64,000 nucleotides of DNA from Actinomycetota bacterium (GTDB taxonomy: Bacteria; Actinomycetota; JAHEXW01). Location: positions 538,851 through 602,850 of the forward strand of contig JBAZZW010000002.1 of the NCBI GenBank assembly GCA_041658625.1, in the 5' to 3' direction. Positions 2,381 through 18,471 of this stretch are shown piece by piece. Below the pieces are notes generated by a model. The model was not told the DNA's origin, did not search any database, and saw only the letters and a program-made list of their open reading frames with translations. The position numbers and the translations under genes are program-made. The stretch's first letter is position 1, and every line of letters begins with the position of its first letter.

Positions 2381-3498
2381 TTCTCGGTCTCCCGTAACGC
2401 CAATCCTATCGGCACGGCCAACGCCGGCTCGATTTCCTGGAACTCGGTTTCAGTCAGCTGCATTTTCCCGACTTTCACGTTCTGTAGGGGCATGCCGTAC
2501 CTGACATTGATCTGCAAGGCTTTTTCCAGTTCGTCTCGTAGCCCGCCGATCTTCGCCCCACGCCCGCTAAGGACGATTGATTCCGGCGGCTTGCACCCTG
2601 TCTGGTCCAAACAGTAGTCTATGGACCGGCGGATTTCCCTGACAAACGATGCGATCCGGTTGCGCAGAATCTCCTGGGCCGCTTCTTTCTTCTCCAGCGA
2701 AGGCTTGGGAATCGCGGGGTTTTCGCTTTCCGCTAGCGAAATCTTCAACTCCTCCGCTTCTTCCTCGGTGATATTCATGTTATCGGCCAGGGCTCTCGTA
2801 AAGTCGTTCCCGCCGAACAGAAGAATTCTGACGAAGTATGGCAGACCTTCCTCGACGATAATCATGTTGCTGACGCCTGCGCCGATGTTCAACAAGCAAG
2901 ACGTTTCCAGAGCTTCCTTGGCTTGTTCGTCGGATGGAAAAGCCGGCAGACGCGGAATCAACGAGCGCATAAGCGCGAATGATTTGACATCTATGGAGGC
3001 CGGGTACAGACCGGCGCCCGACAATGCTTCCACAAACGATTGGATCATTTCCCTCTGCGCTGCGACCAAGAGCACTTTGATGTTTTTCTCGTCCTCTTTG
3101 ACTTGATATTCCTTAAGGATCTCGAAATCGATAATGGTTTCTTCCACCGGCATCGGGATGTAGTCGGCTGCCTGGAATTTGATCGCGCCCTTGAGCTCTT
3201 CATCGCTCATTTGCGGCATATCGATAACGCGCACGATTACTTTTTGGTTGGCCACGCCGAGGACGATGTTCTGTTTCGGGAACTTGTTCTTAGCCCAAAG
3301 GTCTTTGAGGATGGCCGAAACCGCTTTGGCGTCGGCTATTTCGCCGTCGACAACCAGGTTTTCGGGAATGCGGACGATTCCGACCTTGTCTAATACCGGC
3401 GGTTGCTTGCCTGTTTGAATCTCCACCACGCGAATCGACCTGGTCCCTATGTCAAGACCTATGGCCTGCGTCGGTTTGCCTAATGAGAAAAGCGCCAC
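2377..3498 (-). CDS. pilM: type IV pilus assembly ATPase-like protein PilM (actin-like fold)
   Basis: 373 aa; N-terminal IGLDIGTRSIRVVE sugar-kinase/actin-like motif, PilM-like length. Confidence 0.85.
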   Translation of the reverse strand: MALFSLGKPTQAIGLDIGTRSIRVVEIQTGKQPPVLDKVGIVRIPENLVVDGEIADAKAVSAILKDLWAKNKFPKQNIVLGVANQKVIVRVIDMPQMSDEELKGAIKFQAADYIPMPVEETIIDFEILKEYQVKEDEKNIKVLLVAAQREMIQSFVEALSGAGLYPASIDVKSFALMRSLIPRLPAFPSDEQAKEALETSCLLNIGAGVSNMIIVEEGLPYFVRILLFGGNDFTRALADNMNITEEEAEELKISLAESENPAIPKPSLEKKEAAQEILRNRIASFVREIRRSIDYCLDQTGCKPPESIVLSGRGAKIGGLRDELEKALQINVRYGMPLQNVKVGKMQLTETEFQEIEPALAVPIGLALRETEK

Positions 3499-3499
3499 G

Positions 3500-3682
3500 T
3501 TAACCTCCGCGGGCTGCGTTTGATTCTTTGGAGAGATACTTGTTGACGGCTAGGGATTTAATACGGTAGCCGCGACCGACGCGAACTGCCGGAAGCTGCC
3601 CCACTTTGATTAGCCGGTAGACCGTCATCTTTGAAACACGAAGATGTGTCGCGACCTCAGATACCGTCATCAGCGTCTTCAT
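3500..3682 (-). CDS. excisionase-family helix-turn-helix DNA-binding protein
   Basis: 60 aa; LMTVSEVATHLRVSKMTVYRLIKVGQLPAVRVGRGYRI matches HTH_17/excisionase-type domain; 2 nt upstream of pilM. Confidence 0.6.
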   Translation of the reverse strand: MKTLMTVSEVATHLRVSKMTVYRLIKVGQLPAVRVGRGYRIKSLAVNKYLSKESNAARGG

Positions 3683-3736
3683 TAAGCCACCTCATGTGTA
3701 TTGCCTGCTCAAGCTACACTTAGGAATATTATCACT

Positions 3737-3817
3737 AGTTAACATTAGTTGTCAATCGTTACCAGTTCTTAACAACTGTATTACCTCGTTAACACGAGTT
3801 AACATCAGTAACATCGG
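3737..3817. promoter_or_regulatory. cluster of GTTAACA direct repeats (three copies at 10-bp spacing) upstream of HTH-pilMNOP operon
   Basis: GTTAAC at 3738, 3788 and 3798, GTAACA at 3809, plus GTTACC/TTAACA variants; sits 55-135 bp upstream of the 3682 start codon. Confidence 0.35.
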
Positions 3818-4126
3818 GCAATGCAAGTGAACACTTTAGTGTTTTCTTGGTTTTTTTATGAGCATTGCGGGGACGCCATATTAGATAGTAAGAGCTAAAT
3901 TCTTTCCAGCGGCCGGTTACCGCTGACCGTTGTCTGATTATTCTTCTCTTAGAATATTCGACAGGGCTTCCGTTGGCTGCATGGTGGTTCTTGAATTGGT
4001 CTATAAAGCTTTCATTCGCACCTGGTAACCTTTGCATCCTTCGTCTTCGAGTTTAGGTTCGAGCATCCCTTTCAGTTTTCAGATGCGGAGGGCTCACAGT
4101 CTCTTCAAACTTGGCATATTGCCTGG

Positions 4127-4591
4127 TTAGCTGCCTGTTGGATAAACCTTTATCCGGCCGATGCTTGTGGTTCTGATTACCATAGAGCGCTTGTTGACGA
4201 GCGCAGAGAACAAAAGCGGCACCCGTGCCCGACTCTCCACCTCAACATATACTTCAGTGTTAACAACTTTGACGTCTAACAGCTCCGCACCGCACAAACC
4301 ATCCAGGTTCTTCTCTACCCATTCCATGGCATCTTCATCGGAGGCATAGTTGTTTCGCGACCCGGATTCCGCCGCCTCACGTAGATCGATTTCCTCAGCA
4401 ACCTCACGCGCCGCGACGTCACTTGCCTTATATAGTTCCGCCTTAGCCGCCATCACCCGCCCGGCATCAATGCTCCACCCCATAAACAACAAAACCACCG
4501 GCATTATCGCCACAATCAAAACCGTAATTGACCCTTCTTGTGGCTTATGTTCTAAGTTCGTTCTCTTTTTACATGCATCAATTATTTTCAT
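4127..4591 (-). CDS. TadE/TadG-like pilus assembly (pseudopilin-like) protein
   Basis: 154 aa; N-terminal GSITVLIVAIMPVVLLFMGWSIDAGR...AAREVA resembles the TadE-like N-terminal domain. Confidence 0.45.
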   Translation of the reverse strand: MKIIDACKKRTNLEHKPQEGSITVLIVAIMPVVLLFMGWSIDAGRVMAAKAELYKASDVAAREVAEEIDLREAAESGSRNNYASDEDAMEWVEKNLDGLCGAELLDVKVVNTEVYVEVESRARVPLLFSALVNKRSMVIRTTSIGRIKVYPTGS

Positions 4592-4610
4592 TTTACGTCC
4601 ATGATTTTAC

Positions 4611-4634
4611 GGACACATTCCCGGGAATGTGTCC
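4611..4634. promoter_or_regulatory. 24-bp perfect palindrome GGACACATTCCCGGGAATGTGTCC (copy 1), between arsR-like gene and TadE-like gene
   Basis: Read directly; identical to copy 2 at 5041..5064; candidate operator or RNA hairpin. Confidence 0.5.
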
Positions 4635-4639
4635 GTCGA

Positions 4640-5038
4640 CTAATGGAGATATTTCCTAAAGAGACTGCTAAGGTTGCCTAGCATCACGTCCGTGACCACC
4701 CGACTGTCTTTGTCTTCTATTTCTCTGTTAAAGGAGTGTATTACAAGAAATAGCAGCATTTCATTCCTTAACGACAATCTGACCTTGCGAACTCTATAAT
4801 AGATAAACGATCCCCTGTTTCTATAGGTAACAAATCCGGCTTTGTTCAGGTCGCTTAGATTCCGCGAAACTGTTTTAACAGGCCACCCGCCCCGAATGCT
4901 GATTTCACCAACAGTTAGCGGTCCTGTATTGTTGAGCATTTCAAGTATCTCCAAACGTTTTCTGAAGCCAAGGACTTTGAAAATATTCGCCAAATCATCA
5001 AGTTCGTTCTTCTTTGTCATTTTCTCCTTTGCAAACAT
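4640..5038 (-). CDS. ArsR/SmtB-family transcriptional regulator
   Basis: 132 aa; winged-HTH LEILEMLNNTGPLTVGEISIRGGWPVKTVSRNLSDLNKAGFV; alternative start at ATG 5020 with AGGAG RBS. Confidence 0.8.
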   Translation of the reverse strand: MFAKEKMTKKNELDDLANIFKVLGFRKRLEILEMLNNTGPLTVGEISIRGGWPVKTVSRNLSDLNKAGFVTYRNRGSFIYYRVRKVRLSLRNEMLLFLVIHSFNREIEDKDSRVVTDVMLGNLSSLFRKYLH

Positions 5039-5040
5039 CA

Positions 5041-5064
5041 GGACACATTCCCGGGAATGTGTCC
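5041..5064. promoter_or_regulatory. 24-bp perfect palindrome GGACACATTCCCGGGAATGTGTCC (copy 2), immediately upstream of arsR-like gene
   Basis: Read directly; exact duplicate of 4611..4634. Confidence 0.5.
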
Positions 5065-5070
5065 TTACTT

Positions 5071-5835
5071 TTAAAAACTTACACTTCCGGTGTCTTGGAG
5101 AGAACGTGCAAAAGGCAGTTCGGGGGCCTTCTGCCCGGTTTCATTTATGTTTACGCCACGGAATGAGTTAATCGGGATTTCAAAATAAACAGTTGCCGTT
5201 GAGCCGTCTATCGCGGTGATTTGGACATAGTGCGTGCCTTGACCGCCGAAATCATATTCGCCCCTGGCTGTTATGTTGTTTGATAGTTGCGGATCCGTGA
5301 ATTGTCCAGTCGCCAGCGTAACCGTGTAATGCGATCCGTTTCGATCCTGCCGCCCGACAACAGCGTACACTCGATAAGACTGGATTGGTTTGTTTGCGGA
5401 GAACGCGATATTTAGGTCTAGGTGGGCCGGTTCGTCATTTTGACTCTGCCGGCGCCCGTCTTCTGTTAAATAATGCCAGCGGGTAAAAACATACGGTGGC
5501 GACTTTGCCACAGAAACCGTCACCTGCAACGGTTCTGCCCAATACCCGCTGGCCGCCCACTCTTGATAGGTCTGCCAATATCCGCTTGCAACCCAGGTTG
5601 AATATGGCGCCCAAGCCCAGTAGCTTGTGTCCACCCACGTCCAGTAGCTCTTATCGTGCCATTGCCACCAAGCCCCGACCCAGCCGGCACCAGGGCAATA
5701 CACGTCGCTTCGATGCTTATGATACCCCCATGCATAAGCGAAATACATCGGCCCCCAATTCATGCCAATTAGGGAGTCATCCTGAGGAGCAGAAGAGATG
5801 ACTGGCGACGAGGGAACTCTCACGATTCTACTCAT
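5071..5835 (-). CDS. hypothetical protein with Trp/Tyr-rich repeats (SYW/GYW every ~8 residues) and a C-terminal beta-rich domain
   Basis: 254-aa longest ORF in the region; unusual composition; no family recognised. Confidence 0.4.
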   Translation of the reverse strand: MSRIVRVPSSPVISSAPQDDSLIGMNWGPMYFAYAWGYHKHRSDVYCPGAGWVGAWWQWHDKSYWTWVDTSYWAWAPYSTWVASGYWQTYQEWAASGYWAEPLQVTVSVAKSPPYVFTRWHYLTEDGRRQSQNDEPAHLDLNIAFSANKPIQSYRVYAVVGRQDRNGSHYTVTLATGQFTDPQLSNNITARGEYDFGGQGTHYVQITAIDGSTATVYFEIPINSFRGVNINETGQKAPELPFARSLQDTGSVSF

Positions 5836-6200
5836 TCAGCCACAATCGTGCCTTGAGAATCGCTGGACAGTGAGGCAATCGCTTATAGAATCATCCGAAT
5901 GCTTGCCGACAAGTTTAATCCGATGTTGGCTCCCCGGGTTGTATGTTTTTCGCACATTCCGAGCTTGCATAAGACAAACCGAGGTCGTCTTCGACGCATC
6001 TACGAAAAAGCATATCCTTAAAAATGCCAATTGCTGCTTCGTCAAAATACACGTTTTCACACCTTCTGCCCGATGCTGGGCAAGGAGGCAATAAAGAACT
6101 TGGACGCATTGATAAAAGAGAATAGCGAGAAATGCCTGGACGTTGCCTCATAGTAATTGGCTGCAAAATCGACAAACAGAACTTACATAATAATGCGAGG

Positions 6201-8945
6201 CTACTTGGGCGGTTTAGCTGCTTTCAGTCGTTGTACGGCCCACTCGTTTGAAAGATCAAGCGATTGGTTTAGCTCGAACGAGGTGTCAGCTCGTTTCTTC
6301 TCAGCATTTCGAACTTCTTTGACGGAATCGTAGAACTGTTTGCCAATCAGACGTTGTTTCTCAATTGGAATTACCGGTACTGGTATTGCTCCAAGATCAT
6401 CCCATTCAACGCGGTGTCTACTAATACCTGTGGATTGAGATAAAAGGCGGGCTCGGACTTCGGGGCTTCGAAGAAATCCCCATAAAAACCAAACATCGAA
6501 TCTTGCGTCCTTAAGTCGCATAATAGTAAACTCCGACGAGGCAATTACACCCGAGAGGTCAGCAGGAATCACGGCAATGGAACCGAGGGCAGCAGCAATG
6601 TTGCTTGCTACAATATCATTTTCTTTTGGGTTTTGAACTTTACTATATGTAAGTTCTTCTCCGAGCGCCTTATCGCCTTCCTCGGGGATTCCGTCATATC
6701 GAACACGCAGTAATGTGTTTAGTTTGCTAGGCTCGTTTTTCGGATTGAAGCCCTCATTTTCAATCTTGTCGACTATTGTGTGTAGGGGAACAACATTAAG
6801 GCCATCGGCACGCCATTTGTCAGAAATGTCATTTGGGCGGGGGAGACACGACTTAACATCAAGACGATCTCCAATAAGGCCGCTCCTGACCCGCCAAGGG
6901 CCCTTTATCCCCTGCATAAAAAGATTAAAAGCCTCAAAAAGGTCCCTAGTTTCGTCTTCAGCTGCGGTACGAGCTTCAGCTGCTTTACTAGGCCGTGTCT
7001 TCATGGGCACATCATCAAGGCCTACGTAGCGACATTCATACATAAAGGCATCCGGCTGACTTTGCTTTTTCGCGTCCCGCCGAATGAGGTATAGGACCGA
7101 TGTCTTTGCACGAGCTCCAACACGTTGAAATGCGTCCCCAGGGATACTGATTACGGCACGAACTATAAAGCGATCCCTTATAAAATCTCGTGCGAAACGA
7201 TTATTTGAGGAACTCAAGATTGAGTCGTCAATTACAGTTACGAGTTTACCGCCTGGCTTAAGAATGTCTGCATATCGTTCTAAGAACATAATGCTCGACT
7301 TTAATGATGGGCGTTGTCTATTTGTTTTCCCAAAGCCAAAGGTCCTTAGAGCGTACTGGTTGAGAATTAAAGCCTCGTCTGGCAGCGTCTCTGAGTAATC
7401 CATCGAGAATGGTGGATTTGTTAGAACGATATCGAAACCTCGTCTGCTTCCATTTGATATTTCGAAAATAAGTTTCTGAAGCTCTTCGAGCTCAAAACGC
7501 GATTGCTGATCATCTCCGACACCATGAGACACTGTCTTATCAAGGCTGTCCGCCGCATATATCCGGCTACCGCCGTCTCCATGGAGATACATGTTGATTC
7601 GTGAAATCTTTGCTAATGGTGGTTCTTTACCTGCATCAATGCCAAATATGGAATCGTTGGCGACCCTTTCTAACAAGGCGTTTTGTTCGCTGTCGCTCAG
7701 AGAAGTGTTAGATCGAATTTGATTCCGCATGTCGGTGAGGGCTTCAATAAGGAAGCCTCCTGAACCACAACAGGCATCAATTACATGGTCAATATGGTCT
7801 TTTGATGCAATTGGGGCAGCGAGTTGTTCCATCATTTTTACAATAGACCTGGGTGTAAAGTATTGCCCCAAGGCTTGTCCCCGCATGGTGGCACTTAAGA
7901 ACGTCTCAAACAAACGACCGTTAAGGTCCTCATCAATGCTGTACAAATCAAGTGATTCTAGTTTCGAGACAACTTGTCTGATTGTTCCTATCTGGAGTTC
8001 AATATGGTCATTTGGCCCAAATATCGGTTTCTTCTTTCCTCGGGCAACGTCCTCTCTAAGAACTTCATTAAGCCTGGCAAAAAGGGTCTCATCAACTGGA
8101 TTCTTTACCCCCTGTGACTGCAGAGCATCAATCCAATGCGTTGAGAAGATAACATTGTCCCGTGGTATTGGTTTCTCGTCTCGTAGTAAAGGCCCCATTA
8201 TGGGGTCATCGTGTAGTTTTCGATCCTCCCAAAGCTTTACGAACATTATTTTTACGAACTCAAAGAAAGCAGGTTGAGGATTCATCTTCTCAGCTTTCCA
8301 TATAAGTCTATGACAGCTGTTAAAAACCCTTTTGATCTCCTCAACAGAAGGCTTTTTCATTAGAAAGCGTGGCTTTTGTATCGAAGGCTTCAGGCCTTGC
8401 CTAATAGTAGTAGCCTGAAGTAACGAGCGTACCGAAAAGAAGCTTATGTTGTCATCAGCAAAGTCGGAAAATTCCAGGCTGATTATAGGCTTGCTCTCAT
8501 CCCATTTATAAAGGTCAAATGCGAGACCATTAGTTATTACGTAGTATGAACAGGGGTTTTGATTGCTAAACTCTTGATTAAGCCCTAACGCATATCCAGC
8601 ACCTTGAAAAGCCCACTTGTCGATATCTTCCCCTGGTGATTTTGCATCGATTAGCCACATAGGCTTCTCGTTACAGTAGATGACGTAATCTGGCCTATAG
8701 CCTTCTTTTTTTCTGCCTCTGGCTACAACAATCTCTTTAAGAGATACCTTTGGCCGGATTTCAGAGTCTTTGTAGCCGAGATCCTTTAGCAAACGATTTA
8801 TAAAGAATGTCTCGACTGAAGACTCATCAACTAAAACCGCTTTATCACAGTATTTGTTTGACTTCGCGTCCTTGCCAGCGCGACTCAAAGAGTCTAGGAG
8901 CGTAGGGCGAAGTAGGTCACTTTGCGGGGTTTTTGACTGTTTCAT
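6201..8945 (-). CDS. single-chain restriction-modification enzyme: PD-(D/E)xK nuclease + gamma-class N6-adenine methyltransferase + HsdS-like target-recognition domain (Type IIG-like)
   Basis: 914 aa; N-terminal RPDYVIYCNE...WLIDAKSPGE nuclease core; MTase motif I VIDACCGSGGFL then motif IV NPPF; C-terminal IPVPVIPIEKQRLI typical of HsdS TRD ends. Confidence 0.75.
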   Translation of the reverse strand: MKQSKTPQSDLLRPTLLDSLSRAGKDAKSNKYCDKAVLVDESSVETFFINRLLKDLGYKDSEIRPKVSLKEIVVARGRKKEGYRPDYVIYCNEKPMWLIDAKSPGEDIDKWAFQGAGYALGLNQEFSNQNPCSYYVITNGLAFDLYKWDESKPIISLEFSDFADDNISFFSVRSLLQATTIRQGLKPSIQKPRFLMKKPSVEEIKRVFNSCHRLIWKAEKMNPQPAFFEFVKIMFVKLWEDRKLHDDPIMGPLLRDEKPIPRDNVIFSTHWIDALQSQGVKNPVDETLFARLNEVLREDVARGKKKPIFGPNDHIELQIGTIRQVVSKLESLDLYSIDEDLNGRLFETFLSATMRGQALGQYFTPRSIVKMMEQLAAPIASKDHIDHVIDACCGSGGFLIEALTDMRNQIRSNTSLSDSEQNALLERVANDSIFGIDAGKEPPLAKISRINMYLHGDGGSRIYAADSLDKTVSHGVGDDQQSRFELEELQKLIFEISNGSRRGFDIVLTNPPFSMDYSETLPDEALILNQYALRTFGFGKTNRQRPSLKSSIMFLERYADILKPGGKLVTVIDDSILSSSNNRFARDFIRDRFIVRAVISIPGDAFQRVGARAKTSVLYLIRRDAKKQSQPDAFMYECRYVGLDDVPMKTRPSKAAEARTAAEDETRDLFEAFNLFMQGIKGPWRVRSGLIGDRLDVKSCLPRPNDISDKWRADGLNVVPLHTIVDKIENEGFNPKNEPSKLNTLLRVRYDGIPEEGDKALGEELTYSKVQNPKENDIVASNIAAALGSIAVIPADLSGVIASSEFTIMRLKDARFDVWFLWGFLRSPEVRARLLSQSTGISRHRVEWDDLGAIPVPVIPIEKQRLIGKQFYDSVKEVRNAEKKRADTSFELNQSLDLSNEWAVQRLKAAKPPK

Positions 8946-9354
8946 GTGTTCATTATCATTTGACGGAAGAACTGCGTCAAGGTTCGGCCAAACACTGTCC
9001 TATATAGCGGTCAAGTGACAGACAACTAGACAACCCATTGCTAGGCGCATTGTTCATAGAAAAGGTCAGCCAAGTAAGTTATTTAATTTCTATCTAATAA
9101 GCCATGGCAAAACCTCATCACTCTTCGGTAATCATAGAGAATGTTCGAAGACGCTCCGGCGGCCGCTGTCGCGTCACTGTAAAGTGTCAACAGAAACGGG
9201 GGAACTCCAACTCCAGTTTGTTGTTTATTGTAGCCGAGTGGGCTACGAGTCTTCTTCAAAAGAATATTCCATATACATAGCGTTTCCTCAGCTCTTGAGG
9301 TTTAGCACTTGAAAGTACATAATGAACCTAATCTTGTCTACTGGGGAGTTAATT

Positions 9355-11817
9355 ATGCCTTTGAAGATTAAGCTTAAGAATCAGTTTCGTGAGCCCCTCA
9401 ATACGGATGCGGGTTTCGTCGGTCGTGAAGACGAATTGGCGCGACTCATTACGATATTTCAGCAGAGGCAAGCCGCAACAGTCCTAGTCGCTGGACATCG
9501 AGGGGTAGGCAAGAGCGCACTGGTTGACGAGGCCTTAAAACGCTCGCAAGCCGACAAGAAAAAGCGCGTAGTTGCTCGATTGACGTTGCCCCATCTATCG
9601 CCCGGTAGTTCGGATATTCGAGATCAAATACTTCAATCGCTGGCGCGCTCGCTATATTTCTCTATCAAAGACGACAATAGCGTTCCAAAACCTCTTCGCG
9701 AAGTCAGCAAGGTTCTATATGATAAGACCTATTTGAAGGAACTACACGAGCAGACTGGGGTCGAGTCATTATTCGAAACCGAAGCTAAAGCCCGATCAGC
9801 GACAAAGACAAAGACTTCAATCGCTTTTGGCAAGATAGTTTCACTTATTGTCGGAACGTCGCTCTCTGGTGTGGTTGCTATCGGAGGAATCGCGGTTATT
9901 TCGAGAATCGTTACGGATCATGGCCTGAGTTGGGGAATAGTGGCTAGCGCTGTCGTGTTGGTTACGGTTGTGCTTTCAGCTTATCAACTTAATCTCGAAA
10001 AAGAGGATGAGAATACGACTATTGACAAGGCAACGGCTTCTAACAAGATAAACCGAATCGGTCTTTACGACGTATCTCCCGAGACCCTTGAATTTGAGCT
10101 TCGCGATCTTATAAAGGAGCTTGCAGCTAAAGGTCATCCTTGTGTCTTCGTGATTGACGAACTTGATAAGCTAGAGGCTTTTCCCAAAGGCGTTCAGCAG
10201 GACCCTGAAAGCGCTGGGCAGGATTTTAAAAAACACATCATATTCAGGATTTTGTCCAGTTTGAAAAACTTCTTTACATTGGGTTCTGGAATATTTGTGT
10301 TTATTTCAGGGGAAGATTTCTACGCCCAACTAAATGGACCCATTGAAACAGACATCTATTCGTTAGCTCATACCTTGTTCACTGATCAGGTTTTTGTTCA
10401 GGTTCTCTACTATCAGGACGTGGAGCGCTTGATTGAGCAGATTATTGCCGAAACGCCTGCGGACGAGGAGGAGTACCATCGCTTCAGGAACTATTTGTGT
10501 TGGCGCTCTCGAAATCATGTGTTTGATCTCTTATCACTCATCGGGGAATTTGTCAGATTTGATAATCGAGGCCAGCCATTTCTTTGGGGAGAGAAATCAG
10601 GAGCTCAGGACGGGCATTGGCATGAAGGCAATCTACCGACGAACTGGGAAGTTGCTGCTGCTCTGCAGAAAATAGTGGGGGCCGCTTATGATGAATCGGC
10701 GAGGCCGTCTGCTGGAGAGCAGCGTTTCAATCAAGCATTGTGGCTTACCCAACTGCGAACGGCCTATGATCTGTTCGCTGATATGCCCGTGAAGGTGCCA
10801 GAGGCTGGTTTTGAGTTGCCTGCTGCTTATGCCTGGGTAAAGAATCTAACGCCAAACGATCTTGATGACCTTGCTGGCGCAGTCGAGCGTCTGCTGGCTA
10901 AACTTGAGAGGTATGGTGCGGTAAGAGTAGTCTCGGAGACACTCACTCCCGAGACAGAAGGCCAGCCCGATGTCTCTGTGACTAGCTATACACTAGTTGA
11001 AAACCCACCTTATCCGCCCACGTCAGTCAACTCTGAAGTACAAAGAATCCCACTTGAGGATTATTATCTCGATATCGGGGCGAAAGCGGAGCACCTCGCA
11101 AAGAATCTATCCGTCTTGGGCATTGAGACACCGCAGTTATCCGATGAAATCAACGCTGTCGTCGATCTAATACTCGCAGTCAAGAACATTTCGCCACGAA
11201 ACACAGTACCGAGAAGCAGGGTCAAAGAAGGAATTAAACGAGCAGACGTTCTTGCCGAACAGATGGTCGAGACCGGCGTTAATGCAGTTATTACAAAATG
11301 GGCGGCGGATCACGGGATGCAGCTTAGTCAGGCACTTTCAGAAATTGAAAACAAAACTGGCACGCCCTGGCAAGACTCGCTTACCAGTGAGTTCCCAGAG
11401 TTTGTTGAGGCTTTGGACATAAGCGAGGTTGAATACTTCATCATCGGAGGTTCAACTTCCGAGAACCAGGTTTTAGTGCTGAATAATCGACGAGATCGTG
11501 ATTTGACGGCAGTAAGCGAGGCTTATTCAAAATCCTTGCCTGGTGAAAAGGGTCGCGATAGACGGAAACAACGTCTTCCGATAGTTGTAGTGAGCCAGTT
11601 GTCTCCCGGCAAAAATCCTCAGATTCCACGCGAAGTCGTTGAGGTTATCCAAGAAACCGAAGGTTGGTCTTTCTTCTCTGCCGTACTTGGACTTTTACCG
11701 AAAACGAAGAGAGTCAAAACGAATCTGGCAGGATGGACTGTCTTTTCTCTCGATCCTAGCTTGGATAATTTGGAAGACCTACCAGCTGAACTAGAAACGG
11801 TCTCATACATTACATAG
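9355..11817 (+). CDS. KAP-family-like P-loop NTPase with two TM helices inserted between Walker A and Walker B; ~550-aa uncharacterised C-terminal region
   Basis: Walker A VLVAGHRGVGKSAL (about 9484-9510), two hydrophobic helices (about 9814-9997), Walker B CVFVIDELDKLE (about 10135-10170). Start taken at ATG 9355 (GGGGAG RBS) rather than track start 9322. Confidence 0.65.
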   Translation: MPLKIKLKNQFREPLNTDAGFVGREDELARLITIFQQRQAATVLVAGHRGVGKSALVDEALKRSQADKKKRVVARLTLPHLSPGSSDIRDQILQSLARSLYFSIKDDNSVPKPLREVSKVLYDKTYLKELHEQTGVESLFETEAKARSATKTKTSIAFGKIVSLIVGTSLSGVVAIGGIAVISRIVTDHGLSWGIVASAVVLVTVVLSAYQLNLEKEDENTTIDKATASNKINRIGLYDVSPETLEFELRDLIKELAAKGHPCVFVIDELDKLEAFPKGVQQDPESAGQDFKKHIIFRILSSLKNFFTLGSGIFVFISGEDFYAQLNGPIETDIYSLAHTLFTDQVFVQVLYYQDVERLIEQIIAETPADEEEYHRFRNYLCWRSRNHVFDLLSLIGEFVRFDNRGQPFLWGEKSGAQDGHWHEGNLPTNWEVAAALQKIVGAAYDESARPSAGEQRFNQALWLTQLRTAYDLFADMPVKVPEAGFELPAAYAWVKNLTPNDLDDLAGAVERLLAKLERYGAVRVVSETLTPETEGQPDVSVTSYTLVENPPYPPTSVNSEVQRIPLEDYYLDIGAKAEHLAKNLSVLGIETPQLSDEINAVVDLILAVKNISPRNTVPRSRVKEGIKRADVLAEQMVETGVNAVITKWAADHGMQLSQALSEIENKTGTPWQDSLTSEFPEFVEALDISEVEYFIIGGSTSENQVLVLNNRRDRDLTAVSEAYSKSLPGEKGRDRRKQRLPIVVVSQLSPGKNPQIPREVVEVIQETEGWSFFSAVLGLLPKTKRVKTNLAGWTVFSLDPSLDNLEDLPAELETVSYIT

Positions 11818-11994
11818 CTATGTTGCCTAGCATTCTTACAACAGATTTCGAAACAGCAATGAAAACTATCGAGTGCATCTAATGTTCATCGAATAAGTCA
11901 CCGCAAAACTCCGCTACTCCTCGTTAATCACAGAGTACTCTCTTTAAAGACAATCCGCAGACAAGGACAGCCATCGGGTGATATAGTAATACAT

Positions 11995-12059
11995 TGTTGG
12001 TTGCGCTGGAGGGACTACGAATCCGTAGGTTGGAGGTTCGGCTCCTCTCGGGCGCGCCA
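11995..12059 (+). other. tRNA-like 3' fragment (T-arm-like GGAGG-TTCGGCT-CCTCT, acceptor-like CGGGCGC, G, CCA); no matching 5' acceptor strand
   Basis: Read directly; antisense ORF 11924..12130 translates to the RSRTSNLRIRSP-type peptide typical of tRNA-derived DNA. Possible degenerate tRNA or integration-site remnant. Confidence 0.25.
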
Positions 12060-12161
12060 CATCTCACCTGGGCAACAGATGATGATTTCTTTAATTGACA
12101 AGGTATTATCTGGGGCAATCTAATACTCATCTAATATTGATTGTCGCCGACAAGGAAGGCA

Positions 12162-13028
12162 ATGATATACAAAGGCTTGTACTCTCAGCGCAAGAAAATA
12201 AACCCTGATGAAGATGTTTTTTCATATTCGCTCCCTGCCCCAGTAAGAGCTGCAATATTTAATATTATTAAAAACACCAATCCGAATTGGTCATCTCACG
12301 GCAAAACCCGAAGGCCTTTAAAGGCCATTGTTAAGGATTTTTGTGAAAATCATTTATTTCACGGGATTACACCAAGAGCAGAAGACGCTTTTGCATCTGG
12401 GTACCAATACGCCGACCACCAACTTACCGATGACCTTAAGGCATGGATCCAAACGACTCCACAAGAATCTTTGTTTGATTTTATTGAAGTAGCAATTATT
12501 AATATGAGCGAGTCTAATTTAACGACGCTTGTTAAAGATATTAATGATTTGTTTCAAAGGGAAATGATTGGATTTGAGATTGTAAACGGAAACATTATTG
12601 ACAAGTCTGATGAATTCCTTCATCAAGAAGTTGTTCTGCAGCCAATTCTTGGGCTAAAAGCAGGAGGATTTGAAAAAGCCGAACAAGACTTCATGAAGGC
12701 ATTGCAGGAATATGCCCACAAAGATTATGCGGGAGCCCTTACAAGTGCTAATACTGCGCAGGAAAGCGTTATGAAGAGGATTCTTGGAGTCGAAAAAGGT
12801 GTGTCAAGTGATTTGGTTAAGACATTAGTTGAAAGGGGCATAATCCCTTCATATATGCAGAATAAAATGTTACTGCCCGTTTCGATAAGAAACAAAGATA
12901 GCGACGCACACGGCAGGCTTGATCCAATTGACGTCACGCCGGAACTAGCTCAATACGCGATTCATTGTGTCGGGGCTAATGTTGTGTTCTTGCTCAAAGT
13001 TACGAATATGGACGGCACCCAACAATAG
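12162..13028 (+). CDS. hypothetical protein with C-terminal HEPN-like Rx6H motif (candidate abortive-infection/RNase-type effector)
   Basis: ATG 12162 preceded by AAGGAAGG RBS (track start 12141 is TTG); C-terminal SIRNKDSDAHGRLD fits the HEPN Rx4-6H motif; AT-rich gene. Confidence 0.45.
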   Translation: MIYKGLYSQRKKINPDEDVFSYSLPAPVRAAIFNIIKNTNPNWSSHGKTRRPLKAIVKDFCENHLFHGITPRAEDAFASGYQYADHQLTDDLKAWIQTTPQESLFDFIEVAIINMSESNLTTLVKDINDLFQREMIGFEIVNGNIIDKSDEFLHQEVVLQPILGLKAGGFEKAEQDFMKALQEYAHKDYAGALTSANTAQESVMKRILGVEKGVSSDLVKTLVERGIIPSYMQNKMLLPVSIRNKDSDAHGRLDPIDVTPELAQYAIHCVGANVVFLLKVTNMDGTQQ

Positions 13029-13070
13029 CTGTTTATCGGTTTTGGGTTTCTCGTTTTTAGGAATAATTGC

Positions 13071-13118
13071 AACCAGACTCATAATCCGCGGCAAGTTCGA
13101 GTCCTGCTGTGTTCCCCA
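13071..13118 (+). other. second tRNA-like 3' fragment (CTCATAA loop-like segment, T-loop TTCGAGT, terminal CCCA); no 5' acceptor strand
   Basis: Read directly; GGCAAGTTCGAGTCCTGC resembles a T-arm; lies just downstream of the HEPN-motif gene. Confidence 0.25.
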
Positions 13119-13192
13119 AACAGGAGCTAATAAAAAGGCCGACTCCAATAAACAGACGTCTCTTCTCCTATTAGTTCATGTTTATCGCCTTG

Positions 13193-13591
13193 CTATTTCA
13201 AAGATCGCGCCCTTTGCGAGGCGACATATTCTTCTAGGTCGCTTTTCTGTACTCTCCACGACCCCGCTCCAGCGCCAATCCTGAAGCCTAGCAAGAGCTT
13301 CTTGTTTAGCATGTCGTAGACCTGCGCCTCAGAGAACCGCAACAGCTTGGCGACCTCGCTGACTGTCAGCAAACGATTAGGGTCAGCCATCTTGGCGGCT
13401 TCTTTTTCCGCCGCCTTTTCGTGATACTTTCTGGCGTCCTCGGCGTTAATGAACTTACGCCGGCCGAAGCGAGTGGTCCGGAATTCCCCGCGGCGCATCA
13501 TCTTGCGAACCGTGTTCGGCTCCATTTGTAAAATCTCCGCAACTTCCTCAACACTTATATATCCCGTTTTGTTAGACATATTCATGACCAC
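13193..13591 (-). CDS. DNA-binding protein with two tandem excisionase-type HTH domains
   Basis: 132 aa; YISVEEVAEILQMEPNTVRKMMRRGEF and LLTVSEVAKLLRFSEAQVYDMLNKK are both HTH_17-like. Confidence 0.6.
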   Translation of the reverse strand: MVMNMSNKTGYISVEEVAEILQMEPNTVRKMMRRGEFRTTRFGRRKFINAEDARKYHEKAAEKEAAKMADPNRLLTVSEVAKLLRFSEAQVYDMLNKKLLLGFRIGAGAGSWRVQKSDLEEYVASQRARSLK

Positions 13592-13650
13592 TTTCGTTTG
13601 CTTCAGTCTTCCGTTATCTTCATATATATCAACAATATATCATATTTCAT

Positions 13651-15382: not shown

Positions 15383-16921
15383 CTAAATAATCCTTACCTC
15401 TCTATCAAGCGCCCGATATTGAACAGCCTCCGCGATATGTTCTATGCGTATGTCGTTTTCGCCAGCCAGATCCGCGATTGTCCGCGCGAGGCGCTTAACC
15501 TTTGAATAAGCCCGCGCAGTCATGCCGAACCGATCAATCGCTTGACCCAAGAACTCTTGTGCCTGAGAATCAAGACGGCAGAATTCACGCATCATTCTCG
15601 GTTTAAGGCGCGCGTTAACCCTAACGCCCGTTCCTTTCATTCTTTCAATCTGCCGCCGTCTGGCTTCGACCACCCGCGCCCTTATGCACCCAGAGGCTTC
15701 TCCATCCTGCTCAGACAACATTTGTTCCTTGCTGACCCTTCCGATCTGAACATGCATGTCAATCCGGTCTCTTAGCGGCCCGCTCATTTTTGAGCGGTAG
15801 TGTCTTATCTCTTGCGGCGTACAATCACAATCCCTAACGGTATCGCCAAGAAATCCGCACGGGCAAGGATTCATAGCGGCTATTAACATGAATTCGGTCG
15901 GGTAATCCACGATGCCTGCCGCGCGTGATACTGTTACCCGGCCGCTTTCAATCGGCTGCCTCATGACCTCTAGTACATGCCTTTTAAACTCGTTCACCTC
16001 GTCCAAGAAGAGAACTCCGTTATGACTTAAACTGACCTCGCCCGGCTTTGGCACTGTTCCGCCGCCGATTAATCCGATATCCGAAATCGTGTGGTGCGGG
16101 CTGCGGAACGGCCGTTCCGTAATTAGCGGACAATCCGCTGTAAGCATTCGCGCCGTACTGTAGACTTTTGTCGTCTCGATAGCCTCTTCGATGTCAAGTT
16201 CCGGCAGAATTCCTGGAAACGCTTCTGCCAGCATAGTTTTTCCAGATCCTGGCGGACCGAACATAAGAAGGTTATGTCCGCCGGCCGCGGCTATTTCCAT
16301 CGCCCGTTTGGCCTGGTCTTGACCGCGGATCTCGCACATATCTTGAGATTCCGTCGACATATCTTTCAACAGCCGTTCTACGTCAATCTTCACCGGCTTT
16401 ATGCTCGACTCGGCAGATAAAAACGTTGCGGCTTCTAAAAGATTGTTCACGGGGATAACATCGACTCCCCTGACAAGCGCGGCTTCCGGCGCGTTTTCTG
16501 CCGGGACGATAATCCCTGCGCGTCCGGACCCCCTGGCATATAGAGAAAAAGGCAAAGCTCCGGCAACTCGTCGTACAGATCCATCCAGAGCGAGTTCTCC
16601 GACAACAACATAGCTGTCAGGCTTTTTTTGCTTAATTTGCTTTGTGGCTATTAAGATTGACAAGGCGATCGGCAAATCGAAAGATGGTCCTTCCTTACGA
16701 AGATCAGCGGGTGCCAGGTTTACCGTTATTCGTCGCTTGGGAAATATAAACTCCGAATTTGTGATACCCGCCTTAACGCGCTCCCTTGATTCCCTAATTG
16801 CCGTGTCGGGTAGGCCGACAACGATAAATCCGGGAAGCCCGCCAACGACATGCGCCTCAACCTCTACCCCGCAAGCGTCTATCCCAATGACAGATGATGA
16901 TGTGATTCTAGCGATCATCAA
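15383..16921 (-). CDS. comM: YifB/ComM-family Mg-chelatase-like AAA+ ATPase
   Basis: 512 aa; N-terminal Lon-like domain, Walker A GPPGSGKT, Walker B VLFLDE, C-terminal ChlI-like region. Confidence 0.9.
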   Translation of the reverse strand: MMIARITSSSVIGIDACGVEVEAHVVGGLPGFIVVGLPDTAIRESRERVKAGITNSEFIFPKRRITVNLAPADLRKEGPSFDLPIALSILIATKQIKQKKPDSYVVVGELALDGSVRRVAGALPFSLYARGSGRAGIIVPAENAPEAALVRGVDVIPVNNLLEAATFLSAESSIKPVKIDVERLLKDMSTESQDMCEIRGQDQAKRAMEIAAAGGHNLLMFGPPGSGKTMLAEAFPGILPELDIEEAIETTKVYSTARMLTADCPLITERPFRSPHHTISDIGLIGGGTVPKPGEVSLSHNGVLFLDEVNEFKRHVLEVMRQPIESGRVTVSRAAGIVDYPTEFMLIAAMNPCPCGFLGDTVRDCDCTPQEIRHYRSKMSGPLRDRIDMHVQIGRVSKEQMLSEQDGEASGCIRARVVEARRRQIERMKGTGVRVNARLKPRMMREFCRLDSQAQEFLGQAIDRFGMTARAYSKVKRLARTIADLAGENDIRIEHIAEAVQYRALDREVRII

Positions 16922-17300
16922 TTACCGCGTTCCGGACGTGTTCGAGGTTTCTAATGCGGCCGTCATGTGACATCAAGATTGAGATAACGTCAATGCGCGT
17001 GTCTTCAAACATCGATCGAAGATTGTTTATCCCACCGTAAGTCAGATATCCATCCGCCAGCTTCAACAACTTTTTACGCTTCTTTTTATCTACGGCCTCG
17101 AATGGCTCGCCGACCGTGTTCCCGGATCTTGTTTTTACTTCAACGAAAACTAGAGTCTTGTCTTTGGCTGCGATTAAGTCGAGCTCGCCGACCTTAGTCC
17201 TATAATTACGTCCAAGAATTCGATAGCCTTTACGACGGAGATAGTCTGCGGCAAGAGATTCCCCTAGTCGTCCGAGGGCGTGGTCGTTTCTTTCATTCAT
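16908..17300 (-). CDS. yraN: YraN-family (UPF0102) endonuclease-like protein
   Basis: 130 aa; GESLAADYLRRKGYRILGRNYRTKVGELDLIA...VFVEVKTR motif. Confidence 0.8.
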   Translation of the reverse strand: MNERNDHALGRLGESLAADYLRRKGYRILGRNYRTKVGELDLIAAKDKTLVFVEVKTRSGNTVGEPFEAVDKKKRKKLLKLADGYLTYGGINNLRSMFEDTRIDVISILMSHDGRIRNLEHVRNAVIDDR

Positions 17301-17368
17301 ATTGATAATGTGTCAAATATTCTCTAATCTGTCAAGTTATATTTGACATTATTTGAGATATTGGAAAG

Positions 17369-17815
17369 TTAATTAAGTCTAGCGGCGTATTCCTCGAGGG
17401 TCATTATGTCGGTGAGACCGCGGACGACCCTGGCGAGCTTTTTATCCGCTGTTATAAGTCGGAGTCCTTCAAGGTCGGCTTGGGCGACGAAGTAGGCGTC
17501 ATAGACTGTTATGCCCGCCTGCATCGCTAACTCGATCGCTACGTGCAAAACATTTGAGTCAAATGCTATAGTTGGCAGGCCTTCGTCTTGAAGAGCTTGA
17601 ATCGCGCGATTAATCTCTCTTGGCTTGTCAATACTCGACCATCGCAAACCATTCGCGATTTCATAGAAAGAGAGCTCGGTAATAGCCGTTAGGATTCGGC
17701 CTTTGTTGATGGCCGCTTTAAGCCATAGGGCCTGATAAGAGTCTTCTTCCTCAAGGAACCATTTTATTAGTATGCTTGAATCCAAGAGAATAGGTGTGCT
17801 GCTTTTATTTGCCAA
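17369..17815 (-). CDS. vapC: PIN-domain toxin VapC-like
   Basis: 148 aa; N-terminal ILLDSSILI strand with conserved Asp, later acidic residues (DAYF, ITAD); overlaps upstream antitoxin by 11 nt. Confidence 0.7.
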   Translation of the reverse strand: MANKSSTPILLDSSILIKWFLEEEDSYQALWLKAAINKGRILTAITELSFYEIANGLRWSSIDKPREINRAIQALQDEGLPTIAFDSNVLHVAIELAMQAGITVYDAYFVAQADLEGLRLITADKKLARVVRGLTDIMTLEEYAARLN

Positions 17816-18068
17816 TAGGACCTCTCATCGCGCGGATAATCTCTGTGGAATCACCATGCCAATGGCCTTTTGTCGACTCTCGTATTTCATCCATTATCTT
17901 GCCTGCCTGTTTTCGGCGGGCTTTCAGTTCCTTTTCGTTCTTCCTCTCTTCTATCCCGGCGCGAATATACTCACGGATAATCTCGCTCCGCGATCTGGAT
18001 TCTTCTTTTGCCGTTTGATCGAGCTCATTAATATATGCGTCGGGCATGGTCAGAATAATCCTGGACAT
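17805..18068 (-). CDS. vapB: ribbon-helix-helix (CopG-like) antitoxin VapB-like
   Basis: 87 aa; N-terminal RIILTMPDAYINELDQTAKEESRSRSEIIREYI is a classic RHH fold signature. Confidence 0.65.
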   Translation of the reverse strand: MSRIILTMPDAYINELDQTAKEESRSRSEIIREYIRAGIEERKNEKELKARRKQAGKIMDEIRESTKGHWHGDSTEIIRAMRGPIGK

Positions 18069-18124
18069 TGTTACCTCCTCTTGAATGATATCTTTCTGGT
18101 ATCAATTGTATATCTCTTGTTTGT

Positions 18125-18146
18125 ATCAGGCAATACATTGCCTGAT
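18125..18146. promoter_or_regulatory. 10-2-10 inverted repeat ATCAGGCAAT-AC-ATTGCCTGAT about 57 nt upstream of vapB-like start; candidate TA operator
   Basis: Read directly; a second palindrome CCTCTCCCC-GGA-GGGGAGAGG lies at 18183..18203. Confidence 0.3.
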
Positions 18147-18471
18147 TATGATCAGCAAATATATTTGGCCCCTCACCTCAATCCTCTCCCCGGAGGGGAG
18201 AGGCAGTAACAAAACTCGAGCACCTATTCTGCGAGTCAAGACTGAGGGTGGGCGGGAGCCTCGAACATGGGTTTCCTTGAAGTTTTTCGCGCCGCCAGCC
18301 GCCGATTAATATAAAGGATCGAGCATGCGGACATTCCACGACTCGAGCGGAGAGCATTGTTTGCTCGCCGTGGCGACCTGAAACACGGGGTCAGGCCCTA
18401 TCTCATAAGAAGAAAGGGCCTGACCCCATAGCACTAACGATGGTAGGCCGCGAGCGGCATGCTCGTCTATT

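Follow-up and report, generated by a model that had tools for sequence, protein, structure and literature searches.

How two pieces of different transfer RNA (tRNA) genes could come to stand on either side of a single defence gene is the question raised by the locus described here. The locus lies in a 64,000-nucleotide (nt) stretch of the genome of an uncultured Actinomycetota bacterium (contig JBAZZW010000002.1, positions 538,851 to 602,850), which was analysed at its full length and is called the window below. Within this window, a gene encoding an AbiJ/HEPN protein is preceded by a piece of a tRNA-Arg(ACG) gene (fragment 1) and followed by a shorter piece, within 13071-13118, that resembles the 3' part of a tRNA gene with the anticodon CAU (fragment 2). 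In the present study, fragment 2 is best explained as an inert, decayed relic of site-specific recombination that was imported together with its cargo and was not formed at this locus, a reading to which we assign a probability of about 0.78.

Results

Sequence of fragment 2 and its tRNA origin

On the forward strand, the sequence at 13071-13118 reads caacca-GA-CTCATAA-TCCGC-G-GCAAG-TTCGAGT-CCTGC-TGTGTTC-C-CCA. The anticodon-loop-like CTCATAA, the T-loop TTCGAGT and the terminal CCCA that had been pointed out in an initial annotation of the sequence are all present, the last of them being a discriminator C followed by CCA, and the distance from the anticodon loop to the T loop is 11 nt, compared with the canonical 14-15 nt. 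The 5' acceptor partner is indeed missing, as had also been stated: direct reading of the upstream sequence revealed neither a GRRYRYR motif nor a complementary 5' acceptor strand. ARAGORN called zero tRNA genes in the whole window, as did the Rfam search at gathering thresholds; an intact tRNA call across the region, which the initial annotation had named as contrary to its interpretation, was thus not obtained. Fragment 2 thus has neither the full cloverleaf nor the paired acceptor stem of an intact tRNA gene.

The tRNA origin of fragment 2 became apparent by comparison with natural attachment (att) sites derived from CAU tRNAs. These sites were found by pattern scans and share the consensus GACTCATAATCCGC-GTGTC-GCAGGTTCGAGTCCTGC-TGGGCCC-A-CCA, the T-arm section of which is GCAGG-TTCGAGT-CCTGC. 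Over 13076-13109, fragment 2 is identical to this consensus at 33 of the 34 aligned bases, with one 4-nt gap, and its differences as a whole amount to a 4-nt deletion in the variable loop and five substitutions (a T-stem G replaced by A, three altered bases of the acceptor strand, and an altered discriminator). The Smith-Waterman score of this alignment was 50; the next-best site in the real window scored 28, and the best scores in 200 shuffled windows had a mean of 23.5 and a maximum of 32, giving a Gumbel P of about 4e-8 for this one reference. In addition, a BLAST search of 2.3 Gb of phage records returned only tRNA-Met or tRNA-Ile (CAU) among the annotated best matches of fragment 2 (77% identity over 49-55 nt, E=0.1). 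A blastn-short comparison of the window with 56 independently collected tRNAs had no power for fragment 2, and in the same comparison the score of fragment 1 was matched by 1 of 100 shuffles. Judged by these sequence comparisons, fragment 2 is homologous to the 3' part of a real tRNA gene, and is both tRNA-derived and degraded.

The natural family also identifies the crossover point. Among viral contigs, the CAU att piece was found inside intact CAU tRNAs in three and as a 3'-only piece starting exactly at CTCATAA in five. Among the 122 matches listed from a scan of metagenomes, at least 84 lie within intact tRNAs and at least 34 are internal orphan pieces that start exactly at CTCATAA and follow unrelated upstream sequence; the variable loop is 5 nt and the T-stem strand is GCAGG in 122 of 122. 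One orphan copy (locus L078) lies 124 nt from a tyrosine integrase gene. The tRNA similarity of fragment 2 begins 2 bases before CTCATAA, as in the orphan copies, and its 5' limit therefore coincides with a known crossover sublocation. Outside the tRNA part, no similarity was found between the island described below and the flanks of approximately 130 att-bearing loci, so that the source element family cannot be named.

Several features of the natural family were also observed. In three loci (L153 at 3176-8660, L113, and L169), two CAU att copies stand 2.8-5.4 kb apart around cargo without an integrase, and these look like cassettes of the type of cis-mobilizable elements (CIMEs). The cargo encodes a 1214-residue TIR-cyclase-AAA_16-TPR (STAND) protein and a 400-residue open reading frame (ORF) in L153, and an AAA_14/DUF4143 ATPase and a 271-residue ORF in L113. 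A conserved arm, CTGAGGCTAACCAAGCAAAACACT..GAAACAA, stands directly 5' of CTCATAA in at least nine contigs, L169 among them, and this shared arm suggests one widespread element family that uses the CAU-tRNA site. The ORF beside one of the viral 3'-only pieces (L048) was considered as an integrase and rejected, as it has no Pfam match and the locus ends approximately 100 nt past the fragment.

Folding on either strand did not make fragment 2 more stable than shuffled sequences (z -0.47, +0.06, and +0.19), and no promoter or terminator consensus site overlapping it was found in a scan for such sites. Fragment 2 accordingly shows neither the excess stability nor the conservation beside homologous genes that a functional structured RNA would display. 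In public assemblies, a gene of 67 codons is annotated on the minus strand at 12945-13148, which overlaps the 3' end of the AbiJ gene and all of fragment 2 and whose product has no family match; this ORF over a tRNA scar is almost certainly spurious.

Fragment 1 and the 3'-part covariance model

A covariance model of the tRNA 3' part, from the anticodon stem to the discriminator, was built from 34 class-I tRNAs of the fetched loci, with all CAU and ACG tRNAs excluded, N placeholders in the alignment, and the search filters switched off. An intact tRNA-Ala scored 45 bits with this model, the 47-nt tRNA-Arg-like site of Pseudomonas phage Dolphis (L046) scored 28.2 bits, and undegraded orphan CAU fragments scored 25-32 bits; judged by these control scores, the model is sound. 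Its top match in the window was fragment 1 (12010-12056, 25.4 bits, E=1.2e-4), which is also matched by the Rfam tRNA model as a 5'-truncated hit of 12 bits. In the phage records, fragment 1 matched actinophage tRNA-Arg(ACG) genes at 83-87% identity (E=7e-5), and it matched the Dolphis site, approximately 230 nt from the integrase gene of that phage, at 83% over 47 nt. A viral scan for its exact T arm plus acceptor returned no matches.

The initial annotation was therefore right that two different tRNA-like 3' ends surround the AbiJ/HEPN gene in direct orientation; the parent tRNAs are tRNA-Arg(ACG) and a CAU tRNA. No direct or inverted repeat partner of either fragment was found in 3-14 kb of the window, and no repeat is common to both. 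The region of fragment 1 at 11996-12060 folds more stably than shuffled sequences (-31 kcal/mol, z=-2.5), with GCGC of the D-stem remnant pairing with the acceptor 3' strand; this folding excess may be incidental.

The imported segment and its boundaries

Fragment 2 lies in a 164-nt spacer at the edge of a variable segment of low guanine-plus-cytosine (G+C) content (39-47%, compared with 51-55% in the flanks), 1 kb from fragment 1. It is the last recognisable feature of this segment, 75 nt from the stop codon of the right-boundary gene, which encodes two HTH_17 domains, and these 75 nt are common to no relative. The right breakpoint is that stop codon (13193), up to which a four-genome alignment holds. 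A sister lineage (JBBAAE010000029.1), 85% identical in DNA, is colinear on both sides of the segment and carries, between the HTH_17 stop codon and approximately 5880-5935, another 6.4 kb of defence cargo comprising DUF3800, a PglX-like methylase, and a KAP/PifA-like NTPase. Fragment 2 thus marks the boundary of a horizontally acquired segment, as seen from the G+C dip and from the breakpoints relative to the sister lineage and to the relatives described next. Window and sister lineage represent the only two occupied variants seen, with conserved flanks and variable defence content; a tRNA or transfer-messenger RNA (tmRNA) gene in the conserved flank was found neither in the window nor in the seven relatives.

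In the six other relatives, the locus holds a Tad pilus operon. Gene tables of four of them list TadE and a CpaE-like ATPase, between Memo and HTH_17, before the HTH_17 gene, and an RcpC-like gene, TadA/CpaF, TadB, TadC, a Flp-sized ORF and a DUF5666 protein after it; the Tad state of the remaining two was read from DNA alignment only (matching spacing). On this gene order, the Tad pilus operon is taken as the ancestral content of the locus. No tRNA or tRNA-like fragment was found at the homologous locus in any of the seven relatives. The left-boundary gene is truncated at its N terminus: residues 27-254 of its product align to residues 122-349 of a relative's protein (P0005) with 79% identity, approximately 95 N-terminal residues being lost, and full-length homologues in relatives have 331-376 residues.

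In both the window (5071-13650) and the sister lineage, the Tad genes have been replaced by defence cargo, TadE and the CpaE-like ATPase are also gone, and the 349-residue flank gene is cut to 254 residues in the window. Pili are common phage receptors, and the loss of the pilus and the gain of defence genes could both reduce phage susceptibility. The sister sequence is an 8-kb contig whose record is labelled Candidatus Paceibacterota, yet it is 85% identical to and colinear with an Actinomycetota genome, and it is probably mis-binned.

Genes of the island

The segment encodes three genes (Table 1), arranged with the scars exactly at module junctions in the order STAND, Arg scar, AbiJ, CAU scar, core. 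The AbiJ/HEPN gene has the lowest G+C content of the region (39-40%), and its product has two homologues only, at approximately 50% identity, among 5.8 billion clusters searched. The gene for one homologue (P0002) comes last in an element that also encodes an integrase, an HTH_17 protein and a small terminase and that directly adjoins an intact tRNA-Ala gene, at the 3' end of the latter and on the opposite strand; the AbiJ gene family thus rides at the att-proximal end of tRNA-integrating elements. Beside the second homologue no tRNA-like piece was found, and beside P0002 only the intact tRNA-Ala. The 914-residue fusion matches MTase_II, MTase_I, Specificity_I and type IIG models in PADLOC. 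Identical copies of the region are present in several metagenomes.

Table 1. Coordinates of the two tRNA-derived fragments, their parts, and the genes of the locus
Feature	Position	Strand	Description
Fragment 1	12004..12059	+	3' part of tRNA-Arg(ACG) gene without 5' partner; D-stem remnant, anticodon arm, T arm, acceptor 3' strand CGGGCGC, G, CCA
Fragment 2	13076..13118	+	Degraded 3' part of CAU-anticodon tRNA gene, from 2 bases before the anticodon loop to CCA
Start of tRNA similarity in fragment 2	13076	+	GA
Anticodon loop	13078-13084	+	CTCATAA; anticodon CAT at 13080-13082
Anticodon-stem 3' strand	13085-13089	+	TCCGC
Variable loop	13090	+	One base left
T arm	13091-13107	+	GCAAG/TTCGAGT/CCTGC; one A.C mismatch in the T stem
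T loop	13096-13102	+	TTCGAGT
Acceptor 3' strand	13108-13114	+	TGTGTTC
Discriminator	13115	+	C
CCA end	13116-13118	+	CCA
Imported low-GC variable segment (defence island)	5935..13192		Delimited by colinearity breakpoints with the sister lineage, GC dip and ancestral gene order
Restriction-modification fusion	6201..8945	-	914 residues; Pfam HSDR_N, N6_Mtase, specificity-like C terminus
STAND/AAA_16 NTPase	9322..11817	+	831 residues; Pfam; defence-type cargo; weak PADLOC PDC-S27 matches
AbiJ_NTD4 + DUF7014/Abi_C (HEPN) gene	12162..13028	+	Pfam; PADLOC candidate PDC-S32; between the two scars
Right-boundary gene	13193..13591	-	Two HTH_17 (excisionase-family DNA-binding) domains; Pfam, NCBIfam TIGR01764; kept in all relatives
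Left-boundary gene	5071..5835	-	N-terminally truncated, 254 residues

Other observations concern the neighbourhood of the island. The HTH_17 gene was considered as an island excisionase and ruled out, as it is part of the ancestral Tad locus in all relatives. Its product is matched by the MAD1 models of the methylation-associated defence system, with E=8.6e-11 in PADLOC and with 44 bits, against a cutoff of 80, in NCBIfam, and mad2 is among the many methylase models matched by the methylase of the window (6201-8945) and that of the sister lineage (2785-5298); both are probably generic domain matches. In both cargo variants, a methylase is paired with a large P-loop NTPase beside the HTH_17 gene. 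A 24-bp perfect palindrome, GGACACATTCCCGGGAATGTGTCC, occurs at 4611-4634 and 5041-5064, on either side of an ArsR-family gene (4640-5038), and its two copies are probably operator sites. Two 21-nt direct repeats, TTATCACTAGTTAACATTAGT and TTAACACGAGTTAACATCAGT (3729-3749 and 3789-3809, 60 nt apart), stand beside a gene for a 60-residue HTH_17 protein next to PilM. A few kilobases to the right of the island, the conserved region at 16908-18209 contains a NERD/UPF0102 nuclease-family gene and a PIN plus RHH toxin-antitoxin pair.

Discussion

In many islands and phages, tyrosine integrases recombine the 3' part of a tRNA gene carried by an element with a tRNA gene, often in the anticodon loop, whereby the tRNA gene is regenerated at one end of the island and the displaced 3' part marks the other (PMC4383910). 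A 3' fragment of the tRNA gene (tDNA) was left in 3,760 of the 3,919 islands mapped by Islander, and the site was centred on the anticodon in 2,083 (PMC4383910). Fragments of the attR type are pervasive (PMC9897764), tandem accretion at tDNAs is known (PMC4383910, PMC10250203), and hotspots without mobility genes as well as elements with extra target sites have been described (PMC10250203). Fragment 2 is a new instance of this well-known feature, a 3' tDNA fragment derived from site-specific integration.

We propose the following course of events. An element encoding a tyrosine integrase would have integrated into a CAU-anticodon tRNA gene with crossover in the anticodon loop, and, following the standard integration model, the loop-to-CCA part of that gene would have remained at the distal end of the element, with its 3' end directed outward from the cargo. 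The start at the crossover point of the family, the outward 3' end and the position at the edge of the segment all fit such a displaced (attR-type) piece. Fragment 2 has afterwards lost four nucleotides of the variable loop and gained five substitutions; it can therefore no longer specify part of a tRNA, and it is unlikely to serve as an efficient recombination site. The scar may then have come in as foreign DNA together with the AbiJ/HEPN gene and approximately 75 nt of flank downstream. This foreign DNA, with the methylase fusion, the STAND NTPase and the Arg scar, would have replaced the Tad genes between two conserved genes. Because no relative examined has a tRNA at the locus, the scar probably formed elsewhere and came with the Tad-replacing DNA. 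As the parent tRNA is not the same for the two scars, at least two elements would be recorded here, their remains joined by deletion. The difference in cargo between the window and the sister lineage at shared junctions might have arisen when cargo was later exchanged through homologous recombination of flanking sequence, as has been proposed for hotspots without integrases (PMC10250203). Which att half fragment 2 represents, and the order of these events, are what we infer from this arrangement.

Several results weigh against an imported, decayed scar. In the Rfam scan with cmscan, no tRNA match for fragment 2 was obtained at E<=10, whether it was embedded in 3.5 kb or trimmed, with truncated alignments allowed; its lone suggestive match was on the minus strand, to the plastid ycf2 5' untranslated region (UTR) family, which we take to be a family abutting trnI-CAU. 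With the 3'-part model, fragment 2 scored 8.4 bits (E=3.4) and ranked 6 of 21 in the window. The natural att family was retrieved with a pattern drawn from fragment 2 itself, so that the P value must be corrected for multiple choice, and allowing roughly for as many as 1e5 other tRNA families raises it to about 4e-3. An exact-pattern scan of viral contigs for a parent with the acceptor TGTGTTC found none, nor did the metagenome collection, evidently without the organism's own contig, contain a CAU tRNA with the exact T arm of fragment 2 plus TGTGTTC. In viral tRNA-Arg(TCT) genes of two contigs, the T arm plus acceptor, GCAGGTTCGAGTCCTGCTGTGTTC, equals that of fragment 2 except for one T-stem base. 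The acceptor end is thus nearer to viral tRNA-Arg(TCT) than to any CAU tRNA found and, as this strand is shared, the sequence would also be compatible with a chimeric origin. Furthermore, the locus lacks two of the features by which mapped islands are usually defined. No cognate intact tRNA stands at the other end, there being no tRNA in the 64 kb and no repeat of the fragment in 3-14 kb. None of the three island genes encodes an integrase according to Pfam; tblastn with three integrases found no remnants in or beside the segment, and the sole tyrosine recombinase of the window is XerD, 18 kb away. Finally, the route of import is wholly inferred, as is formation elsewhere.

Nevertheless, some of these results can be accommodated by the imported scar. 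Generic structure models miss fragment 2 because of its loop-to-loop spacing of 11 nt instead of 14-15, and its score in the 3'-part model is weak because it is degraded, undegraded copies reaching 25-32 bits. The features of a mapped island are lacking because the scar is orphaned, degraded and relocated. The initial annotation had held that an absence of tRNA homology in covariance models would speak against a tRNA fragment; for fragment 2 such an absence is formally the case, and this demand proves too strict for a degraded piece, the tRNA origin of which is restored by the comparison with att fragments.

The other explanations differ mainly in where the scars were formed. The initial annotation had placed successive integration or decay events at a tRNA cluster. 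Integration scars that have since decayed, with 5' limits at or near the anticodon stem-loop, agree with our results; the cluster at this locus does not. That Arg-ACG and CAU tRNA genes once stood here in a cluster, received successive integrations and were later deleted together with the integrases would account for the direct orientation of the fragments, each marking the right-hand end of a module with a distinct G+C content, and for the position of fragment 2 at the very edge of the segment, adjoining core genes, in keeping with the tandem accretion mentioned above. We regard it as improbable, since there is no tRNA in the 64 kb, no tRNA or fragment at the locus in seven relatives, no integrase or cognate repeat, and an ancestral Tad operon at the site; the flank downstream of fragment 2 is not common to relatives, and if both tRNA genes had been lost, including what was possibly the sole gene for tRNA-Ile2 or elongator Met, compensation elsewhere would presumably have been needed. 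Just as doubtful is the notion that the scars served as island-borne pseudo-attB targets for further tRNA-specific integrases and so accreted cargo at a locus without tRNA genes, which corresponds to step (ii) of the hotspot model (PMC10250203). The scars do stand exactly at module junctions, natural contigs with at least two CAU att copies and cargo between them exist, and the anticodon arm and T arm of fragment 1 are nearly intact; yet an element integrating at a scar would have left another cognate copy, of which there is none, the segment has no integrase, fragment 2 is degraded, and the two scars are heterologous.

Fragment 2 might also be no relic at all. Chance resemblance, in which ordinary intergenic sequence happens to contain CTCATAA and TTCGAGT, would agree with the noise-level scores in generic covariance models, with the non-canonical spacing of the loops, and with the expectation that the T-loop-like 11-mer alone occurs approximately once per window. 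It is nevertheless highly improbable given a score so far above the maximum of the shuffles, with 29 contiguous-block identities to a real att family and a similarity that starts at the crossover point of that family, in a short spacer at the island edge and close to an independently significant tRNA fragment of the same orientation. The least likely of these explanations is that the pieces are transcribed in the UTRs of AbiJ as a functional tRNA-like RNA, that is, as a decoy, an antitoxin-like inhibitor, a sensor bait or a processing signal for a tRNA-directed HEPN RNase. HEPN domains are often RNases, and some are anticodon nucleases; both pieces lie on the coding strand of AbiJ, in its putative 5' and 3' UTRs, and fragment 1 folds somewhat better than shuffled sequences. 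However, neither AbiJ homologue has such a piece on its own strand, fragment 2 has no excess folding and has lost its variable loop, the pieces come from different tRNAs and have decayed unequally, and promoter or terminator consensus is lacking at fragment 2.

Returning to the imported scar, fragment 2 can be regarded as a provenance marker, indicating that the AbiJ/HEPN module formerly stood as cargo at the end of an element that integrates into tRNA genes, a position in which its homologue P0002 is still found. Defence cargo can thus end up, scars included, at a chromosomal site without a tRNA gene or a recombinase. This bears on the assembly of defence islands that lack integrases, and here two heterologous scars mark the module boundaries of a composite island. 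For annotation, the case provides a real tRNA-derived fragment that is missed by standard tRNA covariance models and overlaid by a short ORF in public gene calls. No new mechanism is revealed by fragment 2.

Among known systems, fragment 2 most resembles the displaced 3' tDNA fragments of tyrosine integrases that act in the anticodon loop (Williams 2002; Islander, PMC4383910; van der Gulik et al. 2023, PMC9897764): it extends from the anticodon loop to CCA without a 5' partner, edges low-G+C acquired cargo with its 3' end outward, and belongs to a CAU class with many orphan copies. It differs from them in being degraded, in having neither a cognate tRNA nor an integrase, in lying at a locus where relatives have no tRNA, and in facing an opposite scar from another tRNA. 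Both window fragments also resemble the tRNA 3' parts in phage attP sites (the unannotated site in Dolphis and that in L078), as orphan 3' parts in which the 5' strand of the anticodon stem is broken, and fragment 1 comes close to the Dolphis site in identity and in model score (25.4 and 28.2 bits). Those sites are intact and next to an integrase, whereas no integrase accompanies the fragments of the window and a functional tRNA could not be restored from fragment 2.

CIMEs, known from the literature on integrative and conjugative elements of Streptococcus, consist of cargo without an integrase between two cognate att sites and are mobilised in trans. The present locus is like them in that a single defence gene without an integrase lies between tRNA-derived att pieces in direct orientation; the flanking pieces are non-cognate (Arg-ACG and CAU) and have no common repeat, and therefore a single integrase could not excise the segment. 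Finally, in comparison with the core defence hotspots (Johnson et al. 2023, PMC10250203; Hochhauser et al. 2023, PMC10121019), the site lacks the flanking tRNA or tmRNA present in those of P. aeruginosa and was made by replacement of Tad genes and truncation of a flank gene, but it shares with them the conserved flanks, the swapped defence cargo, the freedom from mobility genes and the foreign G+C content.

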